In this document: in pieces, positions 18,489 through 22,243 of the stretch
Numbering within the stretch: the first letter of the stretch is position 1
Layout: every line of letters begins with the position of its first letter
Sequence record: ON528737
From: Shigella phage ESh27
Strand: one strand, 5' to 3'
DNA: 64,000 bases
Notes under the pieces: model-generated
Database searches by the model: none
Seen by the model: only the letters and a program-made list of their open reading frames with translations
Told to the model about the DNA's origin: nothing
Made by a program: the position numbers and the translations under genes

Positions 18489-19481
18489 ATGTTACCTGTC
18501 GTCGGAAAACTTATTTCTCCAAAAGAACTGGCTGAGATTATTCCTTTGTCGGAAGCTTACGCATCACAAGTGGCTTCTCATCGCGAACAAGTTAATTCGA
18601 TTATGAATGGTGAAGACCCACGCAAACTTATTGTTGTAGGTCCTTGTTCAATTCATGACCCTATTGCTGCTGTTGAATACGGCAAACGTCTGGCTGAACT
18701 TCAAACTCGTCTTCCTAATGTTCTGTTAGTGATGCGCGTTTATTTTGAAAAGCCTCGAACTACCGTAGGTTGGAAAGGTCTTGTAAATGATCCATATCTT
18801 GACGGAAGTTTTGATATGAACCACGGTCTTATAGTTGCACGAACATTGTGTCGTAAACTTCTACGTATGGGACTTCCATTAGCAACTGAAGTATTAGACC
18901 CATTCACGATTAAGTATCTTTCTGGTATTTTCTCATGGGTTGCTATTGGCGCCCGTACGACTGAAAGTCAGACACATCGTGAAATTGCTTCAGGTCTACC
19001 GATGTGCGTAGGCTTTAAGAACGCAACCAATGGTTCTATTAAAGTAGCTACAGACGCGATGTATAGTGCCGCCTGGCCTCATCGGTATATGGGTATGGAC
19101 GTCGATGGTACTGTAGGCATTGTTGAAGCTGAAGGTAATCAGAATACGCATATCGTATTGCGTGGCGGGACCAACGGCCCGAACTATCATTCTTCTGATA
19201 TTCAAGAAGCTTCTAACAAAGCAAGGGCAGTAGGTCTGAATCATTATGTAATGGTTGACTGTAGCCATGCAAACGCTGATGGGCATTATAGCAATCAAAT
19301 TGGTATTGGTAAAAATTTAGCAGCTAATGATTTGGTCAAAGGAATTATGATAGAATCGTTCCTACATGAAGGAAATCAAAAAATTTCTGATAATATGTCC
19401 TATGGCGTTTCCGTTACCGATGCGTGCATCAGTTGGGAACAAACTAAAGAGCTGTTAACTTATATTAATAAGGTTCAATAA
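18489..19481 (+). CDS. 3-deoxy-D-arabino-heptulosonate-7-phosphate (DAHP) synthase, class I (AroG/AroF/AroH-like)
   Basis: 330 aa; GPCSIHD, RVYFEKPRTTVGWKGLVNDP, IGARTTESQTHRE, GFKN, DCSHAN, IESFLHEGNQ match the E. coli AroG family including metal ligands (Cys, His, Glu, Asp); stop overlaps cd start (TAATG). Confidence 0.85.
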   Translation: MLPVVGKLISPKELAEIIPLSEAYASQVASHREQVNSIMNGEDPRKLIVVGPCSIHDPIAAVEYGKRLAELQTRLPNVLLVMRVYFEKPRTTVGWKGLVNDPYLDGSFDMNHGLIVARTLCRKLLRMGLPLATEVLDPFTIKYLSGIFSWVAIGARTTESQTHREIASGLPMCVGFKNATNGSIKVATDAMYSAAWPHRYMGMDVDGTVGIVEAEGNQNTHIVLRGGTNGPNYHSSDIQEASNKARAVGLNHYVMVDCSHANADGHYSNQIGIGKNLAANDLVKGIMIESFLHEGNQKISDNMSYGVSVTDACISWEQTKELLTYINKVQ

Positions 19482-20750: not shown

Positions 20751-20758
20751 TATAAATA
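20751..20758 (+). promoter_or_regulatory. T4-type late promoter (TATAAATA) upstream of rIII
   Basis: tataaata directly after gene 31 stop, followed by hairpin gaagag-aaca-ctcttc at 20766-20781. Confidence 0.5.
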
Positions 20759-20874: not shown

Positions 20875-21123
20875 ATGATTAAACAATTACAACACGCTCT
20901 TGAACTGCAACGCAACGCATGGAATAATGGCCACGAAAACTACGGCGCGTCAATTGATGTTGAAGCCGAAGCACTGGAAATCCTGCGATATTTCAAACAT
21001 CTGAATCCAGCACAGGCCGATCTTCGTGATATCCTGGCTCAGAAAGATGAATTGAAATATGCTAAGCCTCTGGCTTCAGCAGCTCGTAAAGCAGTTCGTC
21101 ATTTTGTTATTACCCTGAAGTAA
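20875..21123 (+). CDS. rIII: rIII lysis-inhibition accessory protein
   Basis: 82 aa; MIKQLQHALELQRNAWNNGHENYGASIDVEAEALEILRYFKHLNP as in T4 rIII. Confidence 0.88.
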   Translation: MIKQLQHALELQRNAWNNGHENYGASIDVEAEALEILRYFKHLNPAQADLRDILAQKDELKYAKPLASAARKAVRHFVITLK

Positions 21124-21493
21124 GTTAAATCGAGGAGCCGTCGAATTGTCTGATTATCGATTTGCGAATCGGTATGTTTTAGAAGTACCGCCCCGACAAT
21201 TTTACGGTGTACCTCTTGAATGTTGTTCTTATAACGGTAAGTGCATGCTACCCCGAGGTGATGGCTAATCGGGAGTACGCCTCAAGGCCTATATATCCAT
21301 CAGTATATATCTTATCCTCGAGAAATCGAACCCGGAACCTTTAAGCTAACGGTGTGCAACAGATAAGAGTTATAAGGTATGATGACGGGTTTATGGTTAT
21401 CCTGTCGTTAAATATCCAAAACCTATGTTCCCCTTGAGGGCTTGAGCAGGCAATGTCAATAAGTCCTGCATTTTCATTTAAAGAGAATTTATA

Positions 21494-21670
21494 ATGGCAA
21501 AACAAACTAAAGCAAAGAAAGCAGTTGAAAAGAAAGTCGGTGATTCTAAACGCGCTGGATACAAGCGTGGGTCGAACTCTCGTATTAATCAAACAGTTGA
21601 GAAGATCATGCGCAGAGCACGTGCAGTTCTTCGAGATGATGCTTCTCGTTTTGGAAAGGTTGTTGCATAA
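21494..21670 (+). CDS. Small lysine-rich hypothetical protein (58 aa, below the ORF-track cutoff)
   Basis: ATG at 21494 with upstream aaagag; MAKQTKAKKAVEKKVGDSKRAGYKRGS...; followed directly by strong terminator. Confidence 0.4.
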   Translation: MAKQTKAKKAVEKKVGDSKRAGYKRGSNSRINQTVEKIMRRARAVLRDDASRFGKVVA

Positions 21671-21675
21671 TTTTA

Positions 21676-21699
21676 GGGAGACTTCGGTCTCCCTTTTGT
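21676..21699 (+). terminator. Intrinsic terminator (GGGAGACTTCGGTCTCCC + TTTT), identical hairpin to the gene 32 terminator
   Basis: 18-nt hairpin with UUCG loop followed by T-run. Confidence 0.8.
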
Positions 21700-21729: not shown

Positions 21730-21758
21730 GTTTACTCTCCTGTAGGATGTGTTACTAT
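21730..21758 (+). promoter_or_regulatory. T4-type early promoter (GTTTAC ... GTGTTACTATAGAC)
   Basis: gtttac 21730-21735; tactat 21753-21758. Confidence 0.6.
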
Positions 21759-21800
21759 AGACTTGTACCACCTAATCAATAAAACAAACTGGAGAATAAA

Positions 21801-22173: not shown

Positions 22174-22202
22174 GTTTACTTTGGTACAGGTTATGTTATT
22201 AT
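22174..22202 (+). promoter_or_regulatory. T4-type early promoter (GTTTAC ... TATTATAGAC)
   Basis: gtttac 22174-22179; tattat 22197-22202. Confidence 0.6.
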
Positions 22203-22243
22203 AGACCTGTACCAACAAACAACTTAAACATCCGGAGAATAAA

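Follow-up and report, generated by a model that had tools for sequence, protein, structure and literature searches.

What does a T4-like phage keep in the 370 nucleotides (nt) between its genes rIII and 30.9, in a neighborhood where genes otherwise lie close together? The question is raised by Shigella phage ESh27 (sequence record ON528737), of which one stretch of 64,000 nt, here called the window, was analyzed. Along the genes around the gap the spacings are, in order, an overlap, 57, 124, 370, 130 and 74 nt. A sequence-only reading had described the gap (21124–21493) as poor in open reading frames (ORFs), elevated in GC and marked by dyad symmetries, and had offered a structured small RNA, a decayed mobile element or intron, or a micro-protein as its content. 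We find that the central 149 nt (21228–21376, plus strand), referred to as the core, form with a probability of roughly 85 to 90% a functional structured RNA of a new family.

The description of the gap itself holds: at 370 nt it is an outlier among the neighboring spacings and contains no credible ORF. All frames within it are short, with 40 and 45 amino acids on the plus strand and 26–27 elsewhere, and an 83-amino-acid frame on the minus strand extends from the gap into 30.9. No intact gene was found in the same interval of related phages, so this part of the reading is not refuted. The GC content is indeed raised, but only modestly, with 41.6% for the gap and 45.4% for the core compared to a window mean of 38.1%; among windows of the same size this places the gap in the top 12% and the core in the top 6%.

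The case for an RNA lies in the way the core varies. Structure was counted on a MAFFT alignment of 25 distinct copies with 46 base pairs and 1,148 cells, of which 99.0% are paired. Compensatory double changes, with both partners exchanged, occur in 21 of the 46 pairs. None of 500 shuffles reached the observed pairing and covariation, and after sliding the 3′ partners by 1–3 columns only 29–43% of the cells were paired and only 1–6 pairs showed changes on both sides. RNAalifold and the minimum free energy structure of the single sequence give essentially the same helices as the alignment-supported fold. The alignment contains 44 G·U cells compared to 0 A·C cells; the pairing is therefore read as that of a plus-strand RNA and not of the minus strand or of a symmetry in duplex DNA. 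The plus strand is also supported by the loops of helix P6, which are of the GNRA type (GAAA or GUAA). With a core covariance model built from this alignment a single copy is found in the window, scoring 183 bits.

The fold is shown best by following its helices from the ends inwards; all of them are read on the plus strand, and core position n corresponds to 21231+n. The domain is closed by P1 (21228–21235/21369–21376), in which AU, UA, GC and CG replace each other in three of the four inner base pairs, whereas the outer 4 bp are paired in this phage and conserved less well. The first arm, P2-P3 (21236–21289), starts with P2 (21236–21238/21287–21289), which is invariant save for a C-to-U exchange giving U·G. 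An internal loop of 8+6 nt follows, made up of the strands J2/3 (AAGUGCAU, 21239–21246) and J3/2 (CUCAAG, 21281–21286), and leads to P3 (21247–21256/21269–21280) with the loop L3 (21257–21268). P3 carries compensatory changes in 5 of its 10 pairs and is entirely rebuilt in the phages EcS1 and JC221. In the sequence-only reading CCCCGA had been combined with CCTC; its partner is UCGGG (21269–21274) within the covarying P3, and the GAGG/CCUC dyad is contradicted by the sequence variation in the alignments.

Next to this arm stands the hairpin P4 (21290–21296/21303–21309), where 3 of 7 pairs covary and the strands occur as UAUAUA/UAUAUA, UAUACA/UGUAUA and UAUGCA/UGCAUA. Its loop L4 (CCAUCA, 21297–21302) forms a kissing helix of 6 bp with UGAUGG of L3 (21259–21264). 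All cells of this helix are paired (100%) and 3 of its 6 pairs covary; the pair Y28:R71, for instance, reads C-G in 16 copies and U-A in the other 9. The remaining arm (21310–21368) consists of P5 (21310–21316/21362–21368) and P6 (21318–21321/21326–21329, with a GAAA tetraloop), each with three covarying pairs, and of P7 (21330–21334/21350–21355) with the 15-nt loop L7, into which a small hairpin is inserted in EcS1. For P7 one compensatory event is seen, an A-U to U-A exchange in phage Cronus. The strand J7/5 (GCAACA, 21356–21361) completes the arm, whose helices P5, P6 and P7 meet in an inner three-way junction. P1, P2, P4 and P5 abut without unpaired nucleotides, forming a perfect four-way junction.

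Invariant positions number 71 out of 141 in the core, 39 of them unpaired. The longest stretch that hardly varies, ACCCGGAACC..AAGCUAACGGUGUGCAACA (21330–21361, plus strand), is interrupted by a few variable bases of L7 only and is the same in the copy of phage JC221. Two further pairings were considered, UGCA/UGCA between J2/3 and J7/5 as well as GGCY/GGCC; both are contradicted by the sequence variation.

The copy in Yersinia phage JC221 is a divergent one. Of this copy, blastn matches 38 nt only, while the core covariance model gives 87.5 bits (E 1.6e-20). It is located between uvsY.-2 and the convergent uvsW.1/uvsW, in an ORF-poor stretch of about 800 nt that ends in a strong terminator. 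Here P1, P3, P4 and P5 are all rebuilt by compensatory changes, including the P1 pair C4-G138, which becomes G-C, and the kissing helix GAUGG/CCAUC reads as replaced by UUGUAUU/AAUACAA. The unpaired strands are kept, namely GGCAAGGGCAUG (GGCAAG(G/U)GCAUG) and ACCCGGAACC..AGCUAACGGUGUGCAACAG. Selection acting on an RNA fold whose single-stranded core is functional would be expected to leave such a picture. At the uvsY-uvsW loci of the RB43 type, which were found by DNA pattern, the core is absent.

The whole gap interval matches 996 phage records, piecewise, and the core alone 407, of which 371 are at least 90% identical. Carriers of the core thus account for roughly a third of the sequenced relatives with rIII (407 of 1,116 records). 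At the slot between rIII and 30.9 it occurs in at least nine genera (Mosigvirus, a subset of Tequatrovirus, Jiaodavirus, Karamvirus, Kanagawavirus, Roskildevirus, Kagamiyamavirus, Moonvirus and Marfavirus) and, likewise on the coding strand, in unclassified Serratia phages; phages of the JS98 and VR5/VR26 types are matched as well, and several E. coli K-12 phages in public collections, AlbertHofmann and Paracelsus among them, carry it. Phages of Klebsiella, Enterobacter, Raoultella and Kosakonia match the central block only, with 91–94% identity and unmatched flanks. Compared to the window, the nucleotide identity of the core is usually above that of gene 31, rIII and 30.9; for KpV477 the values are 0.92 for the core, 0.69 for gene 31, 0.75 for rIII and 0.81 for 30.9. 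Two degenerate two-block patterns gave 0 matches among 185,579 bacterial and archaeal genomes, and blastn at E≤10 gave 0 among 5,426 E. coli genomes. Pattern scans of IMG/VR returned T4-like contigs only, besides three discarded chance matches in high-GC coding sequence, and one metagenome scan added 14 close copies that did not extend the diversity. Taken together, the suggestion of a structured small RNA is borne out by covariation in six helices and the kissing loop, with one event in a seventh helix, by the asymmetry between G·U and A·C, and by conservation exceeding that of the flanking genes.

Public records annotate the RNA domain in other ways. In SA21RB a "rho-independent terminator" (locus 1629–1667) coincides with the P3 hairpin, which has no U tract. 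The KpV477 record (locus 2580–2723) places a "hypothetical protein" of 47 amino acids on the minus strand atop the domain, and in several further records the interval is filled with as many as three hypothetical proteins. Both kinds of annotation, terminator and protein, are likely artefacts.

The core behaves as an optional cassette. In T4 the gap between rIII and 30.9 measures 244 nt and lacks exactly the central ~152–153 nt; with the core model no copy was found at the rIII loci of T4, RB69, one Gelderlandvirus and phages of Proteus, Providencia and Acinetobacter. Three alleles meet at one junction, after ...CUCUUGAAUGU and before GGUAUGAUGACG: T4 is empty, the window has the RNA domain, and F2 and RB69 contain an unrelated cassette of ~45 nt with a GGUUAUC-containing hairpin (retrieved loci F2 ~402–445 and RB69 ~1550–1600). 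F2 matches the window at 99% identity in its flanks, and all three alleles (empty, RNA and ~45 nt) have the same proximal leader of 30.9. In the phages Cronus and Moon the core begins 8 nt after the rIII stop codon. Among the copies compared, no conserved sequence flanks P1, and the core therefore looks like a self-contained unit moved by recombination.

What the comparison of sequences establishes is an RNA fold of the plus strand that is maintained by purifying selection, includes long unpaired strands without variation and is carried as an optional cassette. Several points weigh against reading it as a functional, stand-alone RNA. The folding energy is no better than that of shuffled sequence (z = −0.98 for the gap and −0.58 for the core, unremarkable on both strands) and would not have flagged the region by itself; the case beyond chance is built on conservation and covariation instead. 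No variation is seen in P2 or in four of the five P7 pairs, which covariation therefore neither supports nor contradicts. Diversity is shallow, most copies being more than 90% identical, and the apparent invariance may partly reflect recent exchange between phages. The evidence from a second locus comes from a single genome, JC221. Of the 41 copies retrieved (loci plus window), 40 lie upstream of 30.9 on the coding strand without a promoter or terminator of their own, as a cis-regulatory leader would. Finally, expression, RNA ends and processing are predictions from the genome sequence.

How such an RNA would be made and work can be outlined. A promoter scan called no sigma-70-type promoter inside the gap, and no intrinsic terminator with a GC-rich stem and U tract was called there, the sole such site being the strong terminator at 21675–21694 directly after 30.9. 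Upstream of rIII, at 20751–20758, there is a late-promoter sequence, TATAAATA; the SA21RB record annotates a late promoter at the corresponding position. The core would accordingly be transcribed from upstream, including from this late promoter, within a message running from rIII to 30.9 and ending at the terminator past 30.9, and the module might be released from this polycistronic transcript. P1 clamps the ends of the domain, and the P2-P3 arm and P4 are tied together by the loop-loop helix, as the covariation demonstrates. The four-way junction and the kissing loop would fix these two arms side by side, with the P5-P6-P7 arm presumably packing against them. Such a scaffold would hold the ~40 invariant unpaired nucleotides of J2/3, J3/2, L7 and J7/5 in a fixed geometry, where they could make up a site, binding or active, whose partner would be a small ligand, a protein or another RNA. 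Since the cassette is exchanged while the 30.9 leader stays unchanged, and since JC221 carries it in another operon, we infer that its function is intrinsic to the RNA, acting in trans or self-contained. We thus lean slightly towards a stand-alone module over a leader of 30.9.

A partner was looked for among E. coli 16S, 23S and 5S ribosomal RNA and three transfer RNAs (tRNAs); with 24 tests allowed for, the invariant strands paired no better than shuffled ones. Separately, a 10-nt identity, GUGCAACAGA, is shared by 21354–21363 of the window, part of the most conserved strand, and E. coli rnpB 125–134 in J11/12 of RNase P. As 50 of 2,000 shuffles (2.5%) did equally well before correction for multiple testing, this is a weak lead only.

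Known RNAs do not account for the core. The scans with Rfam, tRNA and group I intron models that the sequence-only reading had suggested were run and matched nothing. With Rfam 15, 0 matches were obtained for the 64-kb window at gathering thresholds and, at E≤1, for six homologous loci including JC221; for 21050–21560 at E≤10 only a chance match of 12 bits to a small nucleolar RNA appeared. ARAGORN found 0 genes for tRNA or transfer-messenger RNA (tmRNA) in the window. A literature search that used the names of genes and taxa, RNA terms and stretches of sequence gave no description of the core. Likenesses to SAM-I (UCUUAUC...GAUAAGA) and to tmRNA PK1 (GUGCAUGC) are supported by no model match. 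As an orphan structured phage RNA the core is of a known kind; the family is new to Rfam and to the literature searched.

Among known systems of this kind, the stable RNAs species 1 and 2 of T4 (rnaC and rnaD) come from arrays of structured RNAs within polycistronic transcripts and measure 119–139 nt. Similar to the core, they are small structured RNAs of T-even phages with no assigned function and are optional among relatives. They differ in lacking homology and in their locus: the best match of the core model within 69–75 kb of T4 reaches 6.7 bits (E 0.48) and lies outside rnaC and rnaD, the window has no tRNAs, and the tRNA-like 3′ arm of rnaC is absent from the core. GOLLD and ROOL are likewise ornate, strongly covarying phage-borne RNAs of unassigned function, but their size is four to six times that of the core, they are found mainly in Firmicutes phages and prophages, and neither their sequence nor their structure matches it.

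The best of the rival explanations, doubtful as we consider it, regards the core as a riboswitch-like aptamer in the 30.9 leader that would control translation or transcription of 30.9 via the downstream hairpins. A multi-helix junction, a loop-loop clamp and invariant junction strands are typical of aptamers, and the core shares these features as well as the position in a 5′ leader with the lysine riboswitch (L2-L3 kissing loop) and with the SAM-I and cobalamin riboswitches (four-way junctions). The location of nearly all copies upstream of 30.9 fits this explanation, and the ribosome-binding region of 30.9 appears, from its letters, able to pair with an upstream U/C-rich sequence. However, the core differs from these riboswitches in several respects. 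No known class matches by covariance model, the gap has no terminator-like site, and no expression platform abuts the aptamer, variable modules of 76–176 nt lying between P1 and the 30.9 start. Phages without the core share the same proximal leader and 30.9, as is seen best in F2 with its nearly identical flanks, and the JC221 copy precedes other noncoding RNA and a terminator instead of 30.9 or another gene to be regulated.

A new class of self-cleaving ribozyme, which would cut the polycistronic rIII-30.9 RNA, is an unlikely identity. The sporadic, cassette-like distribution and a compact pseudoknotted fold closed by P1 would suit it, and the perfect four-way junction with docked adjacent arms recalls the natural hairpin ribozyme; a patchy distribution is also common to the other sporadic phage ribozymes. 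Yet the core has no counterpart of the hairpin ribozyme's conserved loops A and B, no ribozyme family of Rfam 15 matches, about 70 of 141 invariant positions are far above what known small ribozymes need, and the sequence names no cleavage site.

We regard it as very improbable that the core is a passive stabilizer or insulator of rIII or 30.9 mRNA without a specific partner. Its position only a few nucleotides behind the rIII stop in Cronus and Moon and the succession of hairpins along the entire gap could be explained in this way, but ~40 invariant unpaired nucleotides, a four-way junction and a kissing loop with covariation are not required of stabilizing hairpins, and JC221 alters every helix and keeps the unpaired strands.

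Marginally less probable still is a remnant of a mobile element, be it a decayed group I intron, a miniature DNA transposon or the relic of a homing site, that would have no present RNA function. This option of the sequence-only reading draws on the precise presence or absence at one junction, which was indeed found, and on an 8-bp terminal inverted repeat (CTTATAAC/GTTATAAG); in addition the inserted block follows ...AAUGU (U) and ends in ...UAUAAG (G), a fit expected by chance about once in 16 cases. The optional occurrence with exact boundaries in otherwise collinear genomes is shared with the T-even group I introns of td, nrdB and nrdD. Unlike these, the core lies outside genes, has ends paired in P1 and possesses neither a P3-P7 catalytic core nor a homing endonuclease. 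A group I intron is excluded on several grounds: the size of 149–152 nt is below that of known members, the ends are paired, neither Intron_gpI nor Intron_gpII gives a signal even at E≤10, and there is no host gene, as no gene is interrupted and the empty allele of T4 is itself noncoding. The terminal "repeat" varies across genera yet stays complementary, with G·U included and zero A·C, and is thus an RNA helix and not a DNA end recognized by a protein, which excludes a DNA transposon. With regard to miniature transposons (MITE-like elements), the junction shows no visible direct repeat, the copy is single and the ends are not conserved. Conservation above that of neighboring genes, one copy per genome and the absence from the bacterial and archaeal genomes searched also speak against a remnant.

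A micro-protein can be dismissed: the 40-codon ORF starting with TTG (21146–21268) and the Shine–Dalgarno-like GAGGAG are present in this phage as had been described, but the ORF is not conserved and its translation is refuted, as TTG is CTG in T4, SA21RB, RB69, JS98, VR5 and VR26, a 5-nt indel falls inside the ORF, the T4 deletion and the F2/RB69 replacement take away its 3′ half, the Klebsiella and Enterobacter phages share the RNA-helix part only, substitutions follow base pairing with the C-terminal half of the ORF entering compensating helices, and neither PHROG nor Pfam gives a match.

The core, which we take as a structured RNA, is embedded in further structured parts of the gap, all read on the plus strand. 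At the 5′ side a domain at 21134–21207 comprises GGAG (21134–21137), a helix of 13 bp (21138–21150/21195–21207) and a UGCG hairpin (21154–21175). Compensatory changes occur here as well: a U-A pair is exchanged for C-G when the window and T4 are compared, VR26 has A-U in place of a G-C pair, and SA21RB has U·G. T4 retains this domain though it has no core. The conserved GGAG sits just after the rIII stop; it is the motif of the RegB endonuclease in T4 and may be a processing site.

Then follows GUACCUCUUGAAUGUUG (21209–21225), a degenerate copy, by comparison, of the hairpin A described below, with the cassette junction just 3′ of it; in EcS1 and KMB17 an intact copy of this hairpin precedes the core. 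On the other side of the core, the X module (21377–21423) starts with GUAUGAU and contains a stem (21384–21389/21401–21406) with the loop UUUAUGGUUAU, followed by GUUAAAUAUCCAAAACC. It is present in all genera examined. Its stem covaries, and the loop is UUGUAGGUUAUC or UUUAUGGUUAU, followed by GUWAAA...AAAC. The module lies 3′ of the core in the window and 5′ of it in KpV477, 4S and PEi20. A mini-frame AUGAUG...UAA within it was rejected as coding, its stops standing at different positions between genera.

Hairpin A (GUUCCCCUUGAGGGCUUG, 21427–21444) is conserved in 12 of 12 genomes aligned, T4 included, and contains the second dyad of the sequence-only reading, cccttgaggg (21432–21441), which proved to be a real conserved hairpin. 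It occurs once in the window; in RB43, Matisse and JC221 it is found again ahead of a different noncoding block (uvsY-uvsW). Hairpins of the form GUACCC-loop-GGG(G)CUUG are thus a recurring punctuation between RNA modules at two different T4-like loci. The gap ends with the proximal leader of 30.9 (21446–21493), made up of stem B (21446–21450/21465–21469), a U-rich tract (21470–21479) and the ribosome-binding region; it is essentially unchanged in T4, RB69 and F2, which have no core, and its weak stem is not called a terminator.

The noncoding block at the uvsY-uvsW locus is a second conserved ORF-free block of ~130 nt between uvsY.-2 and uvsW.1, with a strong terminator at its end. The block reads GGCGUACUCUUUUGCGCCGUCCGAU.GAAUUUACUUUCGGCGGGGUGAUUGAUAA.AUACCUUCGAG..., and in the retrieved loci it spans 1187–1445 in RB43, 1147–1357 in Matisse and ~1000–1340 in JC221. 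No Rfam match was found, and it is probably another undescribed phage RNA.

The genes around the gap are those of a T4-like phage, and the flagged interval is ~99% identical to that of Escherichia phage phiC120 (Mosigvirus). All on the plus strand, they follow in the order of a DAHP-synthase-family gene, cd, 31.1, 31, rIII, the gap, 30.9, 30.8 and 30.7. Identities of the direct neighbors were assigned by PHROG and Pfam: rIII (20875–21123, plus strand) matches phrog_1457 with E 1.6e-42, and 30.9 (21494–21670, plus strand), encoding a basic protein of 58 amino acids, matches phrog_1427 with E 1.4e-30 in agreement with the synteny of T4. Immediately upstream of cd, an ORF of 330 amino acids (18489–19481, plus strand) belongs to the DAHP synthetase I family (PF00793, E 5e-75), a gene of the aromatic amino acid pathway within a T4-like early region. 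Two near-identical cassettes resembling early promoters (GTTTAC...TGTTAYTATAGACYTGTACCA) are found at 21730–21765 and 22175–22210, upstream of 30.8 and 30.7.

Phage molecular biology has its reference system in the T4-like phages, and therapy collections make wide use of them. That the core escaped notice is plausibly due to its absence from the reference genomes T4 and RB69, and automated annotation has been populating its interval with "hypothetical proteins" that are spurious and, in the case of a single record, with a false terminator. An ornate fold combined with long invariant single strands is a hallmark of RNAs that bind ligands, are catalytic or engage proteins, and accessory, cassette-like behavior is the pattern of host-takeover and counter-defence functions. 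Tentatively, the core may represent a new class of functional RNA carried as a swappable accessory cassette, which could serve as a sensor or sponge of a small molecule, for instance a nucleotide signal of the host or of immunity, as a new ribozyme, or as an RNA decoy that captures a defence protein or a factor of the host. If true, the best-studied group of phages would carry an unrecognized RNA-based function. It is directly testable, for near-identical flanks naturally hold the empty allele, the RNA cassette or the alternative cassette.

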